From assembly GCA_964392135.1 (NCBI GenBank), contig CAYMPX010000001.1, forward strand, positions 1-42,958: 42,958 bases of DNA, read 5' to 3'. The notes beneath the pieces were generated by a model. The model was not told where the DNA came from. It saw nothing but the letters and a program-made list of their open reading frames with translations, and searched no databases. Positions 26,495 through 36,569 of this stretch are shown here, piece after piece (position 1 is the stretch's first letter; every line of letters starts with the position of its first letter). This DNA comes from an uncultured Methylomarinum sp. GTDB taxonomy: Bacteria > Pseudomonadota > Gammaproteobacteria > Methylococcales > Methylomonadaceae. Made by a program: the position numbers and the translations under genes.

Positions 26495-26998
26495 TTAATA
26501 AGGTCTTTTGCGTATATGCAGGCGATACAATAATGGTGAGAGCAGAATTTCCAGTATAACAAACAGCATAATACTGAGTATTCCAGTAAACAGTGTCAAA
26601 CCCAGTTGCTCATGCAAAACCAGTATCGGCAGCACCGATTCCGGGAGGGTATCAAGCATTCTTGAGCGACTGCTTTCTATATAACCTAAACGACGTTTCA
26701 TAAAGCTGGCACTTAAATCTCCCAACATAACCCATATTCCAAAAAACACGCCCGTCTGAATTGCCATACCTAATAGCACCGCCAAAATACCTGTCATAAA
26801 AACGGCAGAAAACAAACCACGCCAGGTTTTACTATGACCAAATAAGGGGTACTGGTCGAAAAAGACCACACCAAAATCTATTGACCAGGCATAACGCGTC
26901 TTGAATAAATTACGGCTCAATATCGGCGTGCCATTAGCAATGTTCAATAATAGTAGCACCTTAACAATACATAGCCAGCAGAATGAAATATCTTGCAT
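26495..26998 (-). CDS. CDP-archaeol synthase-like (CarS/DUF46) cytidylyltransferase family membrane protein
   Basis: The ORF is open to 27097, but the probable start is the ATG at 26998 (MQDISFCW..). It contains LLLNIANGTPIL, GHSKTWRG and GDLSASFMKRRLG, which are typical of the DUF46/CarS family. Confidence 0.6.
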   Translation of the reverse strand: MQDISFCWLCIVKVLLLLNIANGTPILSRNLFKTRYAWSIDFGVVFFDQYPLFGHSKTWRGLFSAVFMTGILAVLLGMAIQTGVFFGIWVMLGDLSASFMKRRLGYIESSRSRMLDTLPESVLPILVLHEQLGLTLFTGILSIMLFVILEILLSPLLYRLHIRKRPY

Positions 26999-27199
26999 AA
27001 GAGAATAAGGGGACGCGAAATCCTGGCATTTCTGGAAACGATGACCCGCGAAAAAATGCTGAATTAAAATTTCGCTTGTGGGTGAAAACTTCCGCAAGTA
27101 TTCCCTGATGGCTTAAACTACCTCATAAACCAGCCAGTGCTGTCGCTGACAGCATAGCCAGGGAAATAATCGGCAGACGAGCCATCGGAGATCTTTGTA

Positions 27200-28091: not shown

Positions 28092-29675
28092 ATGATGCCC
28101 AATAAAACATCTGTATTAATTAAGTCATTACAAAATCCAGTGCTGTTTCCTCACAAGGTCGACTATTTCAAAATCATCGAAACTCATATTTCCTGGGTAC
28201 TGCTGACTGGTCAATACGCCTATAAAATCAAAAAAACTCTAAATCTTGGTTTTCTCGATTTTTCCAGCCTGGAAAAACGTCGGCATTTTTGTTTTGAAGA
28301 ATTACGTTTAAATTCACGACTGGCTAAAGATCTTTACCTTGATGTAATCGCTATCAGTGGAACAACTGAACAGCCAAAAATTGAGGGTTCCGGTACTGTG
28401 ATTGAATATGCCGTTAAAATGCAGCAGTTTGACTACGATAAAACATTCGATCAATTATTGATTAAGAATCAGCTGACTAGCGAACACATAAAGCAAACGG
28501 CGAACATCATTGCGGCTTTTCACAACAGGATTGACAGCGCAGCAGCCGATACCGAATTTGGCAGTGCGAATGCTGTCTTACAGCCGGTAAGGGAGAATTT
28601 TAAGCAGATTCAGCAACTGGATAGCATAGAAAAACCGGACTGTTTAAAACAACTGGCATGGTGGAGCAAACAGCAGTATACGGTACTTCTTTCTTTGTTC
28701 ACACATCGTAAACAGGCGGGGTTTATCCGCGAATGTCATGGCGATTTGCATCTCGGAAATATCGCTTTAATCAATGATCAAACCGTACCGTTTGACGGCA
28801 TTGAATTTAACCCTGCTCTGTACTGGATAGACATTATCAGTGAAATTGCTTTTCTGGTTATGGACTTGCAGAGCAAACAGCGACATGACCTGGCTTTTCA
28901 GTTTCTGAATGAATATCTGCAACACAGCGGCGATTATGCGGGATTAAAATGTCTACGCTTTTATCTGGTTTATCGCGCGCTCGTGATGTCTAAAGTCAAT
29001 GCGATTCGTGCCAGTCAACCTACTTCTGCAACAGAACATCAACTGAATATCAGCAGATTTCACAGTTATTTACAATTGGCGAACAGTTACACACAAACAT
29101 TCACACCTATAATGATCATCATGCACGGCGTATCCTGCGCTGGCAAAAGCTGGCTATCTGAACAAATCATCAACCGTTATCAGATGATAAGGATACGTTC
29201 TGATGTAGAAAGAAAACGTTTGCATAAACTTTCCCAGCAACAAAAAAGTCATTCGGGTATTAATAGCGACCTGTATAGACAGGCATGCAGCGACATGACC
29301 TATCAACATTTGTTGCAACTTGCTGTCGAAATTATTAAAGCGGGTTACTCTGTGATTGTGGATGCAACTTTCCTACAGCAACAGCATCGCAAGCTGTTTT
29401 CCCAGCAGGCTGAACGGCTCCAGATTCCGTTTTTTATTGTAAACCCCAGGACGGATAAGGAGACTCTGCTAAAGCGTATTAAAGAACGCGCCAAACAACA
29501 AGATAATGTATCTGAAGCAGATCAAACGGTACTGGAAAATCAACTTGATAATATACAAGCACTAAGCAATGCAGAGCTAAAATACAGTATTACAATTGAT
29601 ACAGAGCAAACTAAACTGTTATCCAAACTATGGGGATTTCTGGGTGATCATTGCCACTCATGCTACCCGCGTTAA
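28092..29675 (+). CDS. Bifunctional aminoglycoside-phosphotransferase-like kinase / P-loop ATP-binding protein
   Basis: 527 aa. The N-terminal half has the APH/choline-kinase catalytic loop CHGDLHLGNI. The C-terminal half has the Walker A motif HGVSCAGKS. Confidence 0.7.
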   Translation: MMPNKTSVLIKSLQNPVLFPHKVDYFKIIETHISWVLLTGQYAYKIKKTLNLGFLDFSSLEKRRHFCFEELRLNSRLAKDLYLDVIAISGTTEQPKIEGSGTVIEYAVKMQQFDYDKTFDQLLIKNQLTSEHIKQTANIIAAFHNRIDSAAADTEFGSANAVLQPVRENFKQIQQLDSIEKPDCLKQLAWWSKQQYTVLLSLFTHRKQAGFIRECHGDLHLGNIALINDQTVPFDGIEFNPALYWIDIISEIAFLVMDLQSKQRHDLAFQFLNEYLQHSGDYAGLKCLRFYLVYRALVMSKVNAIRASQPTSATEHQLNISRFHSYLQLANSYTQTFTPIMIIMHGVSCAGKSWLSEQIINRYQMIRIRSDVERKRLHKLSQQQKSHSGINSDLYRQACSDMTYQHLLQLAVEIIKAGYSVIVDATFLQQQHRKLFSQQAERLQIPFFIVNPRTDKETLLKRIKERAKQQDNVSEADQTVLENQLDNIQALSNAELKYSITIDTEQTKLLSKLWGFLGDHCHSCYPR

Positions 29676-29861
29676 TACTTACATTGAGCAAGGGACTCGG
29701 TTGGTTATGTGATGGGCAAAGCTTCCGCTCCTGCTCACGCCCCTTACCTACATTCATGTAGGCAAAGCGATAGCGTAACTATCACACTTAGGAACAATAA
29801 TATCCGAAGTCTGACTTGTCTTTTGGTAACCCAACTTTACTGCATCAACAAAGCTAAGGTC

Positions 29862-30800
29862 TTAATGGTGTCTTTTTTCGCTAAGGCTTTTAAGAATTTC
29901 TTCCAGTGGTACCAGGTTCATTTTTACTCTGAATAGCACCTCATGATTATGTAGCAAGCCAAAGCAATCATAGCTTCGTAACATAATATTGGTTTGATTT
30001 AAGGTATTGTTGCTGGATTCCGGGTGTTGTTTGACTAATATATAGAGCTTGTCATCGTTTTTTAATCGCTTTAAATGCTCTCGATCTACAGATATTTCAT
30101 GGGATGTATAGACCATGGGATTGCGTTTGAAATCATGATTTTCCAGTTGTGCTTTTTCTAATAAAGCGCCGGATGCCAAACTACAGGGGAAAATCTCAGG
30201 ATAATGCGCAATATGCGCTAATTCATCAAAATAGTCGGCCTGTTCAGCTAAAGAACCTGATAGAAAGTTTTTAACATTGCCATTATTTAAAAATTTTCGT
30301 TTTAGGAAATAATCTGTACCAGGAATGGTGCTTTTGTCGGGAATCACATTGAGGTTGGGTAGTTTATTGAACTTTACATCCTCTAGGAATAGCGGGCTTT
30401 GGGTTTCTTTTTTGAAGCCTAGCAATATGGTTTTTCCATCCGCTTTTATAGAAATACGGTTGCCTAATGTTAAGTTAGGGATGGTTTTGATTAGGGTTTT
30501 TTTTATTTCCAGCTGAAAGGGTGTTGCGGGTTTTAGCGCGTTGACAAAGGTAATTTGATAGTTGCTATAGCGTAAATTATTCTCAGAAATAATATGATTT
30601 TCATGCTGCGCGTTTCTATATAAGCGCATTTGATATTCGATTAAAGTGTTGAGCTGATAACCCAGAACAATAGGACCTTTAAACGGGTTGTGATTAATCT
30701 GTAACCATTTGTGTTTGTCATGAAATAAGTTAAAGTCATCAGAGGCATTGCGAGCAACTTCTATATGAATCTGGTCAAAAATAAAGGCGAGTTTAGTCAT
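29862..30800 (-). CDS. Hypothetical protein, possible double hot-dog (MaoC-dehydratase-like) fold
   Basis: 312 aa. The N-terminal DDFNLFHD..PIVLGYQL resembles the MaoC motif (D-x-N-P-x-H .. I-x-H-G). It has an ATGA start/stop overlap with the upstream radical SAM gene. The fold assignment is tentative. Confidence 0.4.
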   Translation of the reverse strand: MTKLAFIFDQIHIEVARNASDDFNLFHDKHKWLQINHNPFKGPIVLGYQLNTLIEYQMRLYRNAQHENHIISENNLRYSNYQITFVNALKPATPFQLEIKKTLIKTIPNLTLGNRISIKADGKTILLGFKKETQSPLFLEDVKFNKLPNLNVIPDKSTIPGTDYFLKRKFLNNGNVKNFLSGSLAEQADYFDELAHIAHYPEIFPCSLASGALLEKAQLENHDFKRNPMVYTSHEISVDREHLKRLKNDDKLYILVKQHPESSNNTLNQTNIMLRSYDCFGLLHNHEVLFRVKMNLVPLEEILKSLSEKRHH

Positions 30801-32698
30801 TGAGAGTATAGTGCGTGTTCAATAAAAGTAGCTGAGATAACGGGTTCGGTCACTGCGTTTTCAAACCAAAAATTCATCGGGTAATCAAATCCCATGCCGT
30901 GCATGTAATTATAGAGGGCTTTTTTTAATCCTTCACCTAACATGTCATGATTTGTATTGACCGGGTCGTGGTAATCAATATCGTTTTCAGCGAATAGAAT
31001 GTCGCCATTGGGGATGAGTTTTATCTGGTATTGTTCGGGATGCAACCCTATAGGGCTATGAATGGTTGCGGCAAAACGATGCCAATACGCTGAATTGATA
31101 CAGCCGTTGAGCATAAGCTGGCGAACACGTTCTAATGAATCAACGGTTTCTTGTTCAGTTTGGCTGGGGAAGCCATACATTAAATAAGCATGTACCAGTA
31201 TTCCCGCATCGCTGAAACTTTTGGTAACACGGGCGACTTGTTCAACGGTAACGCCTTTTTTCATCAGTTTAAGTAAGCGATCTGAAGCAACTTCGAGTCC
31301 GCCGCTAATGGCGATACAGCCTGAATCAGCCAATAACTGGCATTTTTCTGCGCTGAAGGTTTTTTCAAAACGGATATTTCCCCACCAGCTGATAATTATG
31401 TTACGTTCAATCAGTTTTTCTGCCATAGCAAATAATACTTTGGGTGGCGCGGCTTCATCAACAAAATGAAAGCCTGTTTCTCCCGTTTCTGCGATTAATG
31501 TTTCAATCCGGTTAACAATAATTTCAGCGCCTGCATCGTCATATTGTCCGATATAGTTAAGACTAATATCGCAAAAACTGCATTGTGACCAATAACAACC
31601 ATGGGCAATGGTGAGTTTGTTCCAGCGACCATCACTCCATATACGGTGCATGGGGTTGAGCATTTCACAGAGTGATAAGTAGCGATCTAACGGTAAGCCG
31701 TCATAACTGGGGGTGCCGGTGTTTTTATGTGGAATGTCGTGCAATGTGGGATTATTCGTATAGATAACCTTGTTTTCTTTGAGGTGATAGCTGCGAAATA
31801 AATCCTCAATAGGGCGCTGATGATTAAGGTGTTCAAGTAAAGTGATTAGTGGTTTTTCACCATCATCAACCGTGATAAAGTCAACAAATTCAAAAATGCG
31901 AGGATCTTTCAATGACCGTAATTCAGTATTGATAAAGCCTCCGCCTAAAATAATTTTAATTTGTGGATTAATTTGTTTGCAGCATTGAGCTATTTTTAAT
32001 GCGCCTAGCATGTTGCCAGGGAAGGGGACAGTCAGCCCAACAATACCAGGTTGTTCTTGAATTAAATAATCATTAACCAGTGAAAAGATAATGTCATCCG
32101 TATAGATTGCGGGTTGTTGTAATTGTTGATAAAGATCGTCAAATGAAGGGTTAGATGCCGCGAGTCTTTCCCCATAACAAGAGACTTCAAAATTAGGGTC
32201 TACCCCTTGTTTGATAACGGCAGACAGATCATCAATAAATAAGGTGGCTAGATATTTTGCTTTATCCTGAACCCCTAAGTCTCCAAACGCTTGCTGTAAT
32301 ACATCCCTGGACATTTCTTCCATTTGATACAGACTCTCAAATTGTGGGCCTTCAGGAAGAAAACTTCGGGAGGCAATGCGTAAAGCCAGTGCTGGATTTT
32401 TGCCTTGTAGAAATTTAACCGTGGGTTCTATGCATTTTTGGTAAGTCGAATAGTGGGCTAAAAAATGATAAATCGCATCAGGCAATTGCTCATCATCAAA
32501 ATCCGCATAGTTGTCTTCAACTGTTTGATAAATATTGTCTAAGCCGGATTTGCTTAATAGAGATAAAAACAACTCTATCGCTAGATCTTTTTGAGAAACC
32601 TGGTAGCCTTCTTGTCTGAGAAATCCTGTTAAATAAGCGGTCGCTGGATAAGGGGTATTCAGCTGGGTCATGGGTGGAGTGATTAGCAGTATTTTCAT
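30797..32698 (-). CDS. B12-binding-domain radical SAM protein (class B-like)
   Basis: 633 aa. The N-terminus (MKILLITPPM..PYPATAYLTGFLRQEGYQV) is typical of the B12-binding domain in these enzymes. The cluster motif is AHGCYWSQCSFCD (31568-31606), followed by a radical SAM core. Confidence 0.75.
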   Translation of the reverse strand: MKILLITPPMTQLNTPYPATAYLTGFLRQEGYQVSQKDLAIELFLSLLSKSGLDNIYQTVEDNYADFDDEQLPDAIYHFLAHYSTYQKCIEPTVKFLQGKNPALALRIASRSFLPEGPQFESLYQMEEMSRDVLQQAFGDLGVQDKAKYLATLFIDDLSAVIKQGVDPNFEVSCYGERLAASNPSFDDLYQQLQQPAIYTDDIIFSLVNDYLIQEQPGIVGLTVPFPGNMLGALKIAQCCKQINPQIKIILGGGFINTELRSLKDPRIFEFVDFITVDDGEKPLITLLEHLNHQRPIEDLFRSYHLKENKVIYTNNPTLHDIPHKNTGTPSYDGLPLDRYLSLCEMLNPMHRIWSDGRWNKLTIAHGCYWSQCSFCDISLNYIGQYDDAGAEIIVNRIETLIAETGETGFHFVDEAAPPKVLFAMAEKLIERNIIISWWGNIRFEKTFSAEKCQLLADSGCIAISGGLEVASDRLLKLMKKGVTVEQVARVTKSFSDAGILVHAYLMYGFPSQTEQETVDSLERVRQLMLNGCINSAYWHRFAATIHSPIGLHPEQYQIKLIPNGDILFAENDIDYHDPVNTNHDMLGEGLKKALYNYMHGMGFDYPMNFWFENAVTEPVISATFIEHALYSQ

Positions 32699-32987: not shown

Positions 32988-33683
32988 ATGATTCCAATTA
33001 GAGATAATATTGTTTGTAAAACAACCCCTTATGTTAGCTGGGGGATTATGGCGGTTTGTATCGTCATTTTTATTGCCATGAAAATGATGCCTGATGAATT
33101 ACAACGTCAGTTAATCTATTTATATGGCATGGTGCCTATTCGATATTCAAACCCTGATTGGGCAACCTCTTTTGGGTTGCCGCCCGATGGTTACTTTTCT
33201 TTTTTGAGTAGTTTGTTTTTACATGGGGGTTGGCTACATATTATTATCAATATGTGGTTTATATGGATCTTTGCTAATAATATTGAAGACCGGATGGGGC
33301 ATGGTCGATTCCTGGTTTTTTATTTGTTATGCGGTTTGTTTGCAACCTTTGTGCAATGGTATTTTGATCCGAGTATGACTATTCCTGTTGTGGGTGCGTC
33401 GGGGGCGATTGCTGGCATTTTAGGGGCTTATTTTTTTATTTCTCCTTATGCCCGGGTGGTTATTTGGTTTCCTTTTTTATTTTTACCCCTCTTTTTTGAA
33501 TTGCCAGCGATCGCATTTTTAGGTTTTTGGGTCATTATCCAAATACAAAATGCAACCACGGCAATGATGTTTGATTCGGTCACGGCTGATGTTGCGTGGT
33601 GGGCACATTTAGGTGGATTTATTGCGGGCGCATTTTTACATCCATTGTTTATTAATAATAAAATGGATGAACCCTCTGAGTAA
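32988..33683 (+). CDS. Rhomboid-family intramembrane serine protease
   Basis: 231 aa and polytopic. It has HGGWLHIIINM, the catalytic GASGAIAG and a downstream AHLGGFIAG His. Confidence 0.85.
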   Translation: MIPIRDNIVCKTTPYVSWGIMAVCIVIFIAMKMMPDELQRQLIYLYGMVPIRYSNPDWATSFGLPPDGYFSFLSSLFLHGGWLHIIINMWFIWIFANNIEDRMGHGRFLVFYLLCGLFATFVQWYFDPSMTIPVVGASGAIAGILGAYFFISPYARVVIWFPFLFLPLFFELPAIAFLGFWVIIQIQNATTAMMFDSVTADVAWWAHLGGFIAGAFLHPLFINNKMDEPSE

Positions 33684-33711: not shown

Positions 33712-33733
33712 AAGTGAGGCTAAAGCCTCACTT
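33712..33733. terminator. Bidirectional hairpin between convergent genes
   Basis: AAGTGAGGC (33712-33720) pairs with GCCTCACTT (33725-33733) around a TAAA loop. It overlaps the stop codon region of the HisA/F-like gene. Confidence 0.5.
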
Positions 33734-34441
33734 ATCGCCGGCTCGAAGCACATTAGCATCAATGATACCCGAATGAAGTGCGCTGGCAATCAGCGCATAA
33801 TAAACGCCCATTTTTTTTAGATTAATCAAATCCATCTTATTACGTATACCACCCGCTGCAATAATATTCTTTTCAGGATATTTTTGACAAAAGTCACTCA
33901 GTCTTTCAATATCTGGCCCCGCATTTTTCCCTACTCTGTCCAAGGTCATAATGATGATATCTTGTGGCCATAATTCCGGTTTTTCTAATAATTCAATGGG
34001 GCCTGTATAACCTTGATTGGGAAAGAAATCCAGTGAAAAAATGTGGTTTTTTAGATGCGTGACGCTATCACTCAAGTTGCGGATATTTTGAGATTCTGAT
34101 CCTATGATTAGTCTATAATTCGCCTTGGGAATTTTGGGTAGTTGCTGTATTTTTGTACCGTTATCAACCCAGAACTCAAGCTGCTGGTATTGCGTAGTGA
34201 TCTGGTTTATTAATGCTTGATTATTGCCTGTATGGGTTATAGCGTTTAAGTCAGCAATGTACACTATTTTAAACGGATAGATGGAGAGAAATCCATGGAT
34301 AACATCTTCAATTAAGCTGGAATGACATAGTTTCGAACGGATAGGCTGGTAAGTTTCTCTTTGACCTTGTTGGGCAGAAACCACAATGCCATCTTTGAGA
34401 TCAATAACCGGGATTATATGCATGGATAAAGGGTGTAACAC
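33728..34441 (-). CDS. HisA/HisF-family TIM-barrel protein (H4MPT-biosynthesis-associated)
   Basis: 237 aa with IIPVIDLKDGIVVSAQQG and AAGGIRNKMD. The start is a GTG at 34441 or an ATG at 34423. Confidence 0.75.
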   Translation of the reverse strand: MLHPLSMHIIPVIDLKDGIVVSAQQGQRETYQPIRSKLCHSSLIEDVIHGFLSIYPFKIVYIADLNAITHTGNNQALINQITTQYQQLEFWVDNGTKIQQLPKIPKANYRLIIGSESQNIRNLSDSVTHLKNHIFSLDFFPNQGYTGPIELLEKPELWPQDIIIMTLDRVGKNAGPDIERLSDFCQKYPEKNIIAAGGIRNKMDLINLKKMGVYYALIASALHSGIIDANVLRAGDK

Positions 34442-34498
34442 TTGTATGGTGAGTTATAGGATTATAAAGACTTGTTTGATAATGATAAGGAAGAATTA

Positions 34499-35491
34499 GT
34501 GACTAAGCTGCTGATTTTCGAGTTTATAACAGGGGGTGGCTTATCTCAACAAGGCTTGCCTGATTCATTGGCAAGAGAAGGTTTGCTAATGCTCGAGGCA
34601 CTAATTGATGATCTAACATTTGCTGCAGCATTTCAGATAACGATTTTACTTGACTGGCGGTTTAAGCAGTTAACATTGCCATTAAATATGAAGGCTGTGG
34701 TGGTAGAAAAACATCAATCCGTACATGAGATATTGCCACAGTTAATTGAGCAGACTGATTTTATCTGGCCTATTGCGCCTGAAATGGAGGCTGTTTTACA
34801 AAGAATCACCGATTTGGTTGAGAGCAAGGGGAAACGATTACTCAATTCATCATCTGCAGCGGTGGCAATTTGCAGCGATAAATTGATCACTGCACAGATA
34901 TTAGATCAGTGTGGCATTAATGTCATAGACACGGTGCAACTGAATCAATTTTCAGGCGACCTGAGGAGACAATGGGTTATCAAGCCTAAAGATGGGGTGG
35001 GCTGTTTAAATAATTATCTTGTTTCCGATAATTATGAGTTTGGGCGGGTAACTCGCCAGATTCAGCAAAGGGCGGGTTATATTATTCAACCCTATATTAA
35101 AGGCGAGTCTCTGAGTTTGTCCTGTTTATTCAAACAGGGAAAGGCATGGTTGTTGTGTTGTAATCGGCAGCAGGTTTCATTACAACAGACGTGTTTTAAG
35201 TTAACGGCTTGTGAAGTTAATATTTCTAATAATAATATGCGCTTGTATCAGTGCTTAATTAATCAGATAGCACAAGCAATCCCTGGTTTATGGGGCTATG
35301 TAGGTATTGATATAATACAGGCTGAATTTGATCTTCCTGTGGTGCTGGAAATAAACCCAAGATTAACGACATCTTATGCCGGTATAGCTCAAGCATTACA
35401 GTTTAATGTGGCGCATACGGTGTTGGATATGGTGGATAAAGATCCGGTGATCAAAAAAACAAGAGATCAGACAGTGATAGTCAAATGTTAA
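34499..35491 (+). CDS. ATP-grasp domain protein (H4MPT-pathway-associated)
   Basis: The ORF is open from a TTG at 34472. A GTG at 34499 follows an AAGGAAG SD site and gives (M)TKLLIFEFITGGG, which is typical of this family. It ends with a C-terminal ATP-grasp core (VLEINPRLT). Confidence 0.7.
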   Translation: MTKLLIFEFITGGGLSQQGLPDSLAREGLLMLEALIDDLTFAAAFQITILLDWRFKQLTLPLNMKAVVVEKHQSVHEILPQLIEQTDFIWPIAPEMEAVLQRITDLVESKGKRLLNSSSAAVAICSDKLITAQILDQCGINVIDTVQLNQFSGDLRRQWVIKPKDGVGCLNNYLVSDNYEFGRVTRQIQQRAGYIIQPYIKGESLSLSCLFKQGKAWLLCCNRQQVSLQQTCFKLTACEVNISNNNMRLYQCLINQIAQAIPGLWGYVGIDIIQAEFDLPVVLEINPRLTTSYAGIAQALQFNVAHTVLDMVDKDPVIKKTRDQTVIVKC

Positions 35492-35525
35492 ATGTGTCTC
35501 CAGTTGGCATAAAAAGGAATGATTT

Positions 35526-36569
35526 ATGAGTCAGCGTATTATAGGTTGGGATATCGGTGGAGCACATGTTAAAGCAGCCGTGCTTGAGTCTAACGGTATT
35601 ATTTCTAATGTATTACAACAGCCCTGTCCTTTATGGAAAGGCATTGAATATCTGGAACAAGCAGTGAAGCAGATCGTTTTTGAAGTGGCTGACAGTCATT
35701 GTCTGCATGCGATTACCATGACAGGTGAGTTGGTTGATTTATTTGAAAATCGAGATCAAGGGGTTGAGCAGATTATTGGTGCGATGCAAGCCGTACTTAC
35801 AGACAGTAAAGTATTGATTTATGCCGGAAGTAATGGCTTTTTAACGCCCGATAAAATTGAGCCTGAAGATTATGAATCCATTGCCTCGGCTAATTGGCTG
35901 GCAAGTGCATCGTTTTCTGCCAGTAAGCTTAAAAATGGTTTGTTTATTGATATAGGCAGTACCACAACCGATCTATTGGTTTTGGCTGATAATAAGGTCA
36001 GGGCGATTGGCTTAACAGATTATGATCGAATGCTGTCTGATGAGCTGGTTTATACCGGGATTATCAGGACAGCCGTGATGGCAGTCGCTCAGACGGCAAA
36101 TTTTAAAGGACAGTCTATGGGCTTGATGGCTGAATACTTTGCGACCATGGCCGATGTTTATCGTTTAACTGGCGAGTTAAATGAAATGCATGACCAGACG
36201 GATACCGCAGATGGTGCAGATAAAACCGTATTAGCCAGTGCCAAACGTTTGGCACGGATGACAGGATATGAATATTCAGATAATGATCTGTCATTATGGC
36301 AACTGTTTGCACAGAATATAAAGTCTCAGCAGAAAAGAAAAATTCAGTTGGCCTGTGAAAGACAGCTTTCACGTAACTTAATGGCGAACAGTGATTTTTT
36401 TATTGGGGCAGGGGTCGGACGTTTTCTGGTTATGCAAATAGCGAAAGATTTGAACTATCCTTATGTCGACTTTACGGATTTGATTGAAGCTGATTTAGGG
36501 CAGTCTTCCATGGATATTGCAGATTGTGCCCCTGCTGTTGCAGTTGCAATGCTGGTAAATCCAAAATAA
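35526..36569 (+). CDS. Hydantoinase/oxoprolinase-family protein (H4MPT-linked C1-transfer pathway protein type)
   Basis: 347 aa with an ASKHA-like N-terminus (IIGWDIGGAHVKAAV) and a second phosphate motif (FIDIGSTTTDL). Confidence 0.7.
   Translation: MSQRIIGWDIGGAHVKAAVLESNGIISNVLQQPCPLWKGIEYLEQAVKQIVFEVADSHCLHAITMTGELVDLFENRDQGVEQIIGAMQAVLTDSKVLIYAGSNGFLTPDKIEPEDYESIASANWLASASFSASKLKNGLFIDIGSTTTDLLVLADNKVRAIGLTDYDRMLSDELVYTGIIRTAVMAVAQTANFKGQSMGLMAEYFATMADVYRLTGELNEMHDQTDTADGADKTVLASAKRLARMTGYEYSDNDLSLWQLFAQNIKSQQKRKIQLACERQLSRNLMANSDFFIGAGVGRFLVMQIAKDLNYPYVDFTDLIEADLGQSSMDIADCAPAVAVAMLVNPK

Follow-up and report, generated by a model that had tools for sequence, protein, structure and literature searches.

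Alongside methylases, class B among radical S-adenosylmethionine (SAM) enzymes includes OxsB and BchE, whose chemistry is non-methylating. In OxsB, TsrM and TokK, the cobalamin domain is a five-strand Rossmann fold with a C-terminal hairpin in which strand 2 makes no contact with cobalamin, and class B enzymes bind the cofactor base-off without a diagnostic ligand motif (PMC13331322). Spacing variants of the cluster-binding loop have been catalogued at RadicalSAM.org (PMC9477430); Cx4Cx2C loops are known from the crystal structure of OxsB (PMC9204698) and from GenD1 and GenK (PMC4340712), and OxsB carries A-D-E at its 'GGE' motif (PMC9204698). Methanotroph fatty-acid metabolism, in turn, includes several dehydratase and acyl carrier protein (ACP) paralogues (PMC5222806). 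Here, we analyzed a pair of genes from an uncultured Methylomarinum sp. (assembly GCA_964392135.1, contig CAYMPX010000001.1), one for a radical SAM protein and the other for a hot-dog protein, below called the partner. The window is the whole stretch of 42,958 nt that was analyzed, and all positions are numbered on its forward strand. We propose, with a probability of about 0.7, that the pair is a lineage-specific two-gene operon built from independently distributed genes, in which a class B radical SAM enzyme and a hydratase-type hot-dog protein stand together without either needing the other. Both are uncharacterized members of well-known superfamilies, the cluster-binding motif has structural precedent and the pairing is limited to certain clades. 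Our literature search found no paper on the radical SAM family, the partner family or a pairing of radical SAM and MaoC-type proteins. The genes are arranged as follows.

30797-32698, minus strand: radical SAM gene, an open reading frame (ORF) of 633 aa.
29862-30800, minus strand: partner gene, an ORF of 312 aa for a double hot-dog protein from a small gammaproteobacterial family.
30797-30800, minus strand: ATGA overlap between the stop of the radical SAM gene and the start of the partner gene, read from the sequence.

The ORF list and the junction sequence (...TCT CAA TGA / ATG ACT AAA, a 4-nt overlap) bear out the two ORFs, their lengths and their overlap as an earlier note on this DNA had placed them. 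That both genes are real is supported by at least 8000 scored homologues of the radical SAM protein and about 1140 of the partner; the nearest proteins to both come from metagenome-assembled genomes (MAGs) of Methylococcales.

The independence of the two genes is apparent from either side of the pair. The radical SAM family was followed in a scan of one genome per species, which yielded at least 595 confirmed loci; the best 80 of these were examined. Not one of the 79 informative loci from other species had a partner gene within 6 kb, while locus L001 was too short to judge. For the partner, 94 loci were examined (80 of them metagenomic and 14 retrieved one by one), among which 83 were informative, having at least 600 nt upstream. 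An intact radical SAM gene lay directly upstream in 23 of them and a remnant in three; the remaining 57 had none. The genes are thus not adjacent wherever either occurs, as those of a conserved two-gene module would be, the tallies being 0/79 for radical SAM loci and 23/83 for partner loci with an intact neighbor. Co-occurrence instead followed the identity of the partner to that of the window:

Partner identity of at least 84%: upstream radical SAM sequence in 20/20 (19 intact; in L116 a remnant only).
Partner identity of 79-81.5%: radical SAM gene upstream in 1/25.
Partner identity of 70-79%: radical SAM gene upstream in 2/31, one being Methylomarinum vadi.
Partner identity below 70%: radical SAM gene upstream in 0/4.

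The pairs span Methylomarinum, the clade of the window and a third clade at 67% radical SAM identity. Non-conservation of the pair, which the earlier note had named as evidence against its own proposal, has therefore largely materialized, with pairs confined to Methylomarinum and a marine subclade of Methylococcales. Where the genes do adjoin, 18 of 23 junctions overlap, by 1 nt (TAATG) in 11, by 4 nt (ATGA) in six and by 7 nt in one, and four further junctions have gaps of 2-12 nt. No Shine-Dalgarno-like sequence precedes the partner ATG in the window, which fits termination-reinitiation; in the paired clade, the partner may thus be translated by this route at the overlapping stop and start.

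C-terminal remnants of the radical SAM gene precede an intact partner gene in three loci. Two are from a Methylococcales sponge symbiont (L089:3777-3932 and L090:3777-3932; residues 559-610, 52 codons), and one is from another metagenome lineage (L116:1902-2021; residues 587-630, 44 codons). Identities are 60-64%. Because the breakpoints differ between L089/L090 and L116, two independent deletions of the radical SAM gene are indicated. Lone partner genes were found in the sponge symbiont and other lineages, in contexts that include a position upstream of acpP-fabF in Methylomonas, one next to transaldolase and one after cyanate lyase, and neighbor clustering of the 94 partner loci revealed clade-level synteny only. 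The Methylomonas homologue (L085:5001-7675, CP043929; 75% identity) lies directly upstream of acpP-fabF-pabC-mltG-tmk-holB, an arrangement seen in Methylomonas only, and a homologue with 44% identity occurs in a bamC-purC context in a soil-type metagenome. No protein of Methylomonas was among the top matches of the radical SAM search.

In ten freshwater loci of Methylococcales (for example, L091:3465-3998 and L143:2520-2987), the gene directly upstream of the partner encodes a protein of about 150-200 aa, which is found again in the sponge symbiont L089, there 1.4 kb further downstream on the opposite strand. It carries a membrane helix at the N terminus, a linker rich in Lys, Pro and Ala, and a conserved C terminus (KKGLxNPxTGEvATTYsNYRFTKRWIKDALVTEGLL), matches no Pfam model and is absent from the window. 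We considered whether it might be another radical SAM remnant and rejected this, as it is an unrelated, membrane-anchored protein.

These distributions bear on the suggestion of the earlier note that the pairing points to modification of a lipid or polyketide-like chain. In such a module, the hot-dog protein would make or bind an enoyl- or 3-hydroxyacyl-thioester and the radical SAM enzyme would methylate or otherwise alter it, with the hopanoid methylases and the ladderane cluster (in which a FabZ-type hot-dog dehydratase accompanies a B12 radical SAM enzyme) as named analogues. The stop/start overlap, kept in most of the 23 pairs across three clades and down to 67% radical SAM identity, would fit this idea, as would the thioester-type hot-dog fold of the partner with its hydratase dyad, the acpP-fabF context in Methylomonas, the weak match of the radical SAM protein to the ladderane-type lipid model TIGR04072 (59.2 bits) and the precedent of the ladderane cluster for both enzyme types (PMC10139942, PMC13459092). 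Yet at least 79 other species carry the radical SAM gene without the partner within 6 kb, among them phyla in which no member of the partner family was seen, 57 of 83 partner loci lack the radical SAM gene, two independent deletions removed it and left the partner in place, no ACP, ketosynthase, acyltransferase or hopanoid genes adjoin the pair in the window, and the acpP-fabF context is confined to Methylomonas. We consider a module of this kind rather unlikely. Since the two genes are distributed separately, with the radical SAM gene present without the partner in at least three phyla and the partner widespread without it, deletions included, the inference of a lipid or polyketide substrate is weak.

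Members of the radical SAM family among the best 80 loci, at 54-79% identity to the window, belong to Methylococcales, Cocleimonas, Marinomonas, Oceanospirillum, Marinobacterium, Shewanella, Oligoflexus, Bacteriovoracaceae, Kofleriaceae, other Myxococcota, Steroidobacteraceae, Limnobacter, Hydrogenophaga, Polynucleobacter, Dechloromonas and Vogesella. The family thus spans Gammaproteobacteria, Betaproteobacteria, Myxococcota and Bdellovibrionota, and its gene usually stands alone; identity across phyla is 54-70%, and mean column identity over 29 diverse members is 64%. Neighbor clustering of the 80 loci identified no neighbor conserved throughout the family, and Pfam scans of 27 adjoining genes gave mostly unrelated functions, such as a glycosyltransferase, a transporter, a rhomboid protease, glutamate dehydrogenase and a short-chain dehydrogenase/reductase. 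A lone gene that is so highly conserved argues for a substrate shared across these bacteria, and a substrate common to many Proteobacteria, Myxococcota and Bdellovibrionota would not be a methanotroph-specific lipid such as 3-methylhopanoid.

One explanation built on this conservation, in which the hot-dog neighbor is unrelated, is that the radical SAM enzyme has a housekeeping role, modifying tRNA, rRNA or a conserved protein, ribosomal or otherwise. For a stand-alone gene, its conservation is very high in both measures given above, MiaB is among the structural matches described below and the best hidden Markov model (HMM) relatives include peptide C-methyltransferases (TIGR03975). The only recurrent neighbor is an RluA-type pseudouridine synthase gene, directly downstream in eight Steroidobacteraceae-like loci (L041:3938-4609, L078:7950-8507, L042, L049, L059, L069, L074 and L079) and overlapping the radical SAM gene by 9-12 nt in two of them; in single loci, this position is taken by a gene for a TrmB-type tRNA methyltransferase or for a QueE-like small radical SAM protein. 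These RNA enzymes provide a faint hint of an RNA-related role. They are, however, few and clade-restricted among mostly unrelated neighbors, a Pfam scan of the radical SAM protein found no RNA-binding domain, and high conservation alone does not identify a substrate, so that we regard a housekeeping role as possible, if somewhat unlikely.

Several individual loci showed further features. In Methyloprofundus, the radical SAM gene follows a gene for NAD-glutamate dehydrogenase, lacks the partner and adjoins convergent methanofuran/tetrahydromethanopterin (H4MPT) genes. Proximity to such genes, here and in the window, raised the idea of a pterin methylase, which we rejected because the family is common in organisms that are not known as methylotrophs and would not be expected to use H4MPT. 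The orthologue of Shewanella phaeophyticola (L034:6001-7906) is interrupted by a stop or frameshift, departs from the family at 23 conserved columns and is probably a pseudogene. In a Cocleimonas MAG, a different B12-binding radical SAM gene with DUF4080 (L004:4424-6001; 525 aa) stops exactly where the orthologue starts. Lastly, a MAG labeled Aquificaceae (L008) contains an orthologue with 69% identity to that of the window, as close as the gammaproteobacterial ones, which suggests a binning error or recent transfer.

Family assignment of the radical SAM protein was based on profile searches and an alignment of 201 orthologues with 54-100% identity (120 database proteins, 80 genome loci and the window). 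It belongs to the radical SAM superfamily, with a Pfam Radical_SAM match (PF04055) at residues 364-524 (49.7 bits versus a cut-off of 29.5) and three invariant Cys residues. These lie in AHGCYWSQCSFCD, residues 365-377 (31568-31606), and form the following loop.

31571-31597, minus strand: cluster-binding loop C368-x4-C373-x2-C376 (GCYWxxCxFCD), invariant in 201/201 aligned orthologues.

The earlier note had thus counted the spacing correctly. It had also allowed for a different triad with normal spacing forming the cluster, and none exists among the 201 orthologues. The Cx4Cx2C triad is taken as the cluster site because it is invariant and because C461 and C533 are the only other invariant Cys residues. 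What did not hold up was the novelty of this spacing, as the same loop has been reported for OxsB, GenD1 and GenK (PMC9204698, PMC4340712). V413-D414-E415, likewise invariant, occupies the position of A-D-E in OxsB.

No NCBIfam cut-off was reached in an HMM search with the radical SAM protein, as seen from the scores of the relevant families:

PhpK family TIGR04479: 98.7 bits versus a cut-off of 600.
RiPP (ribosomally synthesized and post-translationally modified peptide) C-methyltransferase TIGR03975: 96.2 bits versus 281.85.
Ladderane-type TIGR04072: 59.2 bits versus 360.
HpnJ: 44 bits versus 578.
HpnR TIGR04367: 17.8 bits (E 9.8e-4) versus 650.

Membership in a ladderane cluster was ruled out on the TIGR04072 score, and orthology to the hopanoid methylases HpnR/HpnP, a possibility that the earlier note had raised against its own proposal, was ruled out because these cut-offs were missed, that of HpnR by a wide distance. 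No HpnP-named model was present among the best 25 of 27 NCBIfam matches, in a library not confirmed to contain one. Furthermore, no hopanoid genes (shc/hpn) flank the pair within the window, and orthologues with 54-70% identity occur in Marinomonas, Shewanella, Polynucleobacter, Oligoflexus and Kofleriaceae, a range not restricted to hopanoid producers. With Marinomonas, Shewanella, Polynucleobacter and myxobacteria among the hosts, the hopanoid-methylase analogy drawn earlier is a poor fit. Searches against PDB chains gave no match at E <=0.01 for the single sequence and nothing better than E 0.04 for the family profile. The protein represents a distinct family inside class B.

Codon 174 (32177-32179) encodes Cys in the window versus Arg in 199/201 orthologues (FEVSCYGE versus FEVSRYGE), and the underlying base is backed by metagenome contigs. 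Gene degeneration was rejected as an explanation of this R174C change, since the protein deviates at 2/191 highly conserved columns versus a family median of 1.

An AlphaFold model of the radical SAM protein (predicted local distance difference test, pLDDT, 80.9; predicted template modeling score, pTM, 0.85) divides it into these segments:

32585-32698, minus strand: part 1 of a Rossmann (cobalamin-type) domain, residues 1-38 (strand 2-7, helix 19-29, strand 33-38).
32054-32584, minus strand: all-helical stretch of about 175 residues inserted into the Rossmann domain, residues 39-215, mostly at pLDDT >90.
31757-32053, minus strand: part 2 of the Rossmann domain, residues 216-314, with strands 3-5 (219-223, 248-252 and 274-276) and a beta-hairpin (303-307/310-314).
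31076-31636, minus strand: radical SAM partial barrel, residues 355-541, with six strand/helix repeats, containing the PF04055 match (364-524) and V413-D414-E415.
30800-31075, minus strand: C-terminal domain, residues 542-633, without a Pfam match and with lower-confidence helices in the model.

Conservation extends through all parts of the protein. Part 1 of the Rossmann domain contains the invariant residues P8, P9, M10, Q12, L13, N14, Y17 and P18, the helical insert is conserved family-wide with invariant residues that include F96, L97, Q98, R107, P115, F138, G139, Y175 and E177, and the C-terminal domain has H547, S548, P549, N597, M599, G603, W611 and F612 as conserved residues. The Pfam B12-binding match picks up again at residue 210, which corresponds to profile position 45. 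As modeled, the Rossmann-plus-hairpin topology agrees with the published description of the cobalamin domain (PMC13331322); the arrangement of class B enzymes, an N-terminal five-strand Rossmann domain with hairpin ahead of the barrel, was found in the predicted structure only. Because strand 2 makes no contact with cobalamin in the known structures, an insert behind it would be compatible with cobalamin binding. The best Foldseek matches were TsrM, OxsB, MgmA, TokK, AprD4 and CysS, followed by MiaB. Together, HMM matches and these structural relatives (TsrM, OxsB, TokK and CysS) support the earlier description of the large protein as a radical SAM enzyme with a B12-binding domain, and the modeled Rossmann domain most likely holds cobalamin.

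When 1.84 billion cluster representatives were searched exhaustively with HMMER, partner homologues were found in only 142 clusters; about 35 of these were full-length, with 34-45% identity. The profile search reached about 1140 proteins, of which the named ones are nearly all from Methylococcales, including Methylomarinum and Methylomonas. Some apparent fusion proteins with partner fragments were discarded, as their extra domains are inconsistent and they look like chimeric gene calls. The partner consists of two hot-dog units, with the following features.

30651-30755, minus strand: MaoC/PhaJ-type hydratase motif region, residues 16-50 (ARNASDDFNLFHD...GPIVLGYQL), in which D22 and H27 are the putative catalytic residues, from the family alignment.
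29865-30323, minus strand: second (C-terminal) hot-dog domain, residues ~160-312, modeled with strand 164-170, helix 204-219 and four long strands.

Among 32 diverse members (22-81% identity), R17, D22, H27, D28, Q49, G128, A212 and P228 are invariant, and the N-terminal consensus reads HIDVARNATDDFNPFHD...NPFxGPIVLGFQL. The C-terminal hot-dog has conserved residues of its own (D192, S210, A212, E215, P228, Y231 and H234). The hydratase-2 motif, an Asp followed by a His five residues on and placed before the central helix, is present. Searches against the PDB with the single sequence and the family profile gave nothing beyond one marginal profile match, to PhaJ (1iq6, E 0.034), in which D22 and H27 align with the Asp and the His of DFNPLH; the aligned PhaJ residues are Asp31 and His36, which we take to be its catalytic dyad. 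The Pfam model MaoC_dehydratas (PF01575) was matched by 11/32 members at E <=5, and one of them, P0254, scored 28.4 bits at residues 16-114 versus the gathering cut-off of 27. In the AlphaFold model (pLDDT 83.2, pTM 0.83), two helix-plus-sheet hot-dog units are predicted. Foldseek returned 128 matches at E <=0.001, and all 50 that were listed are hot-dog proteins, mostly double, including TesB thioesterases, Rv0216, itaconyl-CoA hydratase, hydratase 2 and MaoC-like dehydratases. Model and Foldseek thus agree on a double hot-dog fold, and the MaoC/hot-dog likeness claimed in the earlier note is confirmed by the PhaJ profile match, by Pfam MaoC matches in family members and by the structure predictions.

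The Foldseek results also raise the alternative that the partner is a TesB-like acyl-CoA/acyl-ACP thioesterase instead of a hydratase or dehydratase. TesB-type structures (3rqb, 4r9z, 1c8u and 4qfw; E ~1e-8 to 1e-9) are among its top matches, 2/32 members weakly match Pfam 4HBT_3 and the C-terminal domain has conserved polar residues of its own (D192, S210, E215, Y231 and H234). The invariant residues, however, are the hydratase-2 Asp and His in the N-terminal domain, the sole PDB profile match is the hydratase PhaJ, over this motif, the MaoC model is matched by 11 members and in one case above cut-off versus two members for the thioesterase model, and double hot-dog hydratases equal the thioesterases in Foldseek scores. 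A thioesterase is, on these grounds, unlikely, and the sequence motifs make a hydratase or dehydratase the most likely function of the partner.

Several observations weigh against the operon of two independent enzymes proposed here, or against one of its components. The partner protein of the window itself has no Pfam or NCBIfam match and reaches no Pfam hot-dog model, and its model falls below pLDDT 50 at residues 12-25, within the hydratase-motif segment. For the radical SAM protein, the Pfam B12-binding match (residues 210-262) scores 27 bits, under the cut-off of 32.1. Sequence gives no direct reading on cobalamin binding; two of the structural matches, AprD4 and MiaB, have similar N-terminal domains and are not known to use cobalamin. 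Finally, the overlap retained in about 18 of 23 pairs over 67-100% radical SAM identity is some evidence of selected co-expression and perhaps of a shared pathway.

For the proposed operon of independent enzymes, we envisage the following chemistry. In the radical SAM protein, C368, C373 and C376 in the OxsB-like loop would hold a [4Fe-4S] cluster, at which SAM would be cleaved to a 5'-deoxyadenosyl radical, and the five-strand Rossmann domain with its hairpin, split by the family-specific helical insert of about 175 residues, would provide the cobalamin seat. In the canonical class B course, the radical would then abstract a hydrogen atom, methylcobalamin would donate the methyl group and a second SAM would re-methylate cobalamin. 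Methylation of an unactivated carbon is thus the most likely chemistry, and a non-methylating rearrangement of the OxsB or BchE type is a less likely alternative. The partner, whose N-terminal hot-dog domain retains the Asp/His dyad of PhaJ and MaoC, would most likely act as an (R)-specific enoyl-thioester hydratase or a 3-hydroxyacyl dehydratase on acyl-CoA or acyl-ACP. The core function of each protein would be independent of the other. A more specific alternative is that, in marine Methylococcales, both enzymes act on the same acyl-thioester as a minimal two-enzyme system for fatty-acyl tailoring, the radical SAM enzyme having been recruited from some other, broadly conserved role. Hydration or dehydration would then create or resolve the site that is methylated or rearranged. 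We consider this quite improbable.

The surroundings of the pair match the earlier description of convergent and divergent flanking genes. Downstream, a convergent gene (28092-29675, plus strand) encodes a 527-aa protein with an AAA_33 kinase domain and, upstream, a divergent gene (32988-33683, plus strand) encodes a rhomboid protease, according to the ORF list and Pfam. That the pair is AT-rich proved accurate for the partner gene (36.3% GC), while the radical SAM gene (40.9%) resembles the window (41.5%). Promoter and terminator scans of the locus gave signals at chance level only, metatranscriptome runs of the same study contained no contigs matching it and an anti-phage defense role was excluded, as PADLOC gave no matches. 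The source DNA occurs in microbial-mat, marine-sediment and hydrothermal-vent metagenomes. The spacer between the stop of the kinase-like gene (29675) and that of the partner gene (29862) contains one further element.

29713-29767, strand not assigned: hairpin-containing short element in the 3' intergenic spacer, with high contig depth.

With its hairpin CCTACAT-GA-ATGTAGG, this element occurs once within the window and in multiple copies in the source metagenome, where its contig depth is 340-390 versus 6-13 in the flanking genes and many reads diverge at its edges. It matched no Rfam family, may be a repetitive extragenic palindromic (REP)- or miniature inverted-repeat transposable element (MITE)-like repeat and is probably outside the function of the gene pair. 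Elsewhere in the window, 26495-27097 (minus strand) encodes a 200-aa protein matching a CDP-archaeol synthase (CarS-like) Pfam model. Beyond the rhomboid gene, positions 33728-36569 contain His_biosynth-like and ATP-grasp_3 genes, both Pfam-scanned, and a 347-aa ORF, a run that looks like an H4MPT-linked set of methylotrophs.

With these results, two ideas fall away, namely that the cluster-binding motif is new and that the enzyme is a hopanoid or lipid methylase of methanotrophs. What is left is an orphan class-B-type family, with an OxsB-like loop and a helical insert, that is found as a lone gene in hundreds of species of aquatic bacteria and is suited to function discovery in cultured, tractable hosts (Marinomonas, Shewanella and Methylomarinum vadi), together with a small, un-annotated double hot-dog family with an intact hydratase dyad, mainly from methanotrophs. 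Were the two to work together, they would constitute a very compact lipid-tailoring system, which their distribution makes unlikely.

Among known systems, OxsB of Bacillus megaterium (oxetanocin A; PDB 5UL2-5UL4) shares with the radical SAM protein a cobalamin Rossmann domain with hairpin followed by the barrel and a C-terminal domain, the Cx4Cx2C loop and an acidic X-D-E motif (VDE here, ADE in OxsB). The likeness is structural, with a Foldseek E of 9e-10 over ~470 columns at only 17-18% identity and no sequence-level match. OxsB works with the HD-domain protein OxsA and has an extra N-terminal domain I, whereas the present protein has the helical insert and a hot-dog neighbor and is thus not of the OxsB type; its family lacks an OxsA-like neighbor and is very broadly spread as a lone gene. 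The best overall structural matches are TsrM, TokK and CysS, with the same domain order (TsrM, E 9.5e-11 over ~500 aligned columns), but identities are 12-16% and TsrM is a non-radical methylase. PhpK (TIGR04479) and TIGR03975 are the top-scoring curated families, the latter with proteins of similar length (~600 aa); the radical SAM protein falls far below their cut-offs, and neither phosphinate nor RiPP precursor genes are nearby. HpnR and HpnP are also class B radical SAM enzymes, with HpnR found in methanotrophs, but hopanoid genes are absent from the vicinity of the pair, and the present family is common to many non-methanotrophs in three phyla.

For the partner, PhaJ/MaoC (1iq6) offers the same hot-dog with a DFNxxH Asp/His pair at identical spacing and a subsequent G-P-I-V-x-G at the start of the central helix, whereas PhaJ is a single hot-dog of 134 aa that dimerizes and the partner, at 312 aa, fuses two hot-dogs in one chain and carries the motif in the N-terminal half. 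Rv0216, hydratase 2 of MFE-2, itaconyl-CoA hydratase and TesB likewise have two fused hot-dogs per chain (Foldseek E 1e-7 to 1e-9) but only 7-12% identity to the partner and TM-scores of 0.35-0.52; in eukaryotic hydratase 2, the catalytic motif is in the C-terminal domain, in the partner in the N-terminal one. The closest described combination that we found is the anammox ladderane cluster (amxFabZ, amxACP and TIGR04072), in which a hot-dog dehydratase and a B12 radical SAM enzyme are likewise associated, for lipid tailoring. It differs from the pair studied here in that the radical SAM protein is under the TIGR04072 cut-off, the operon has no ACP or ketosynthase gene and the hosts are aerobic methanotrophs.

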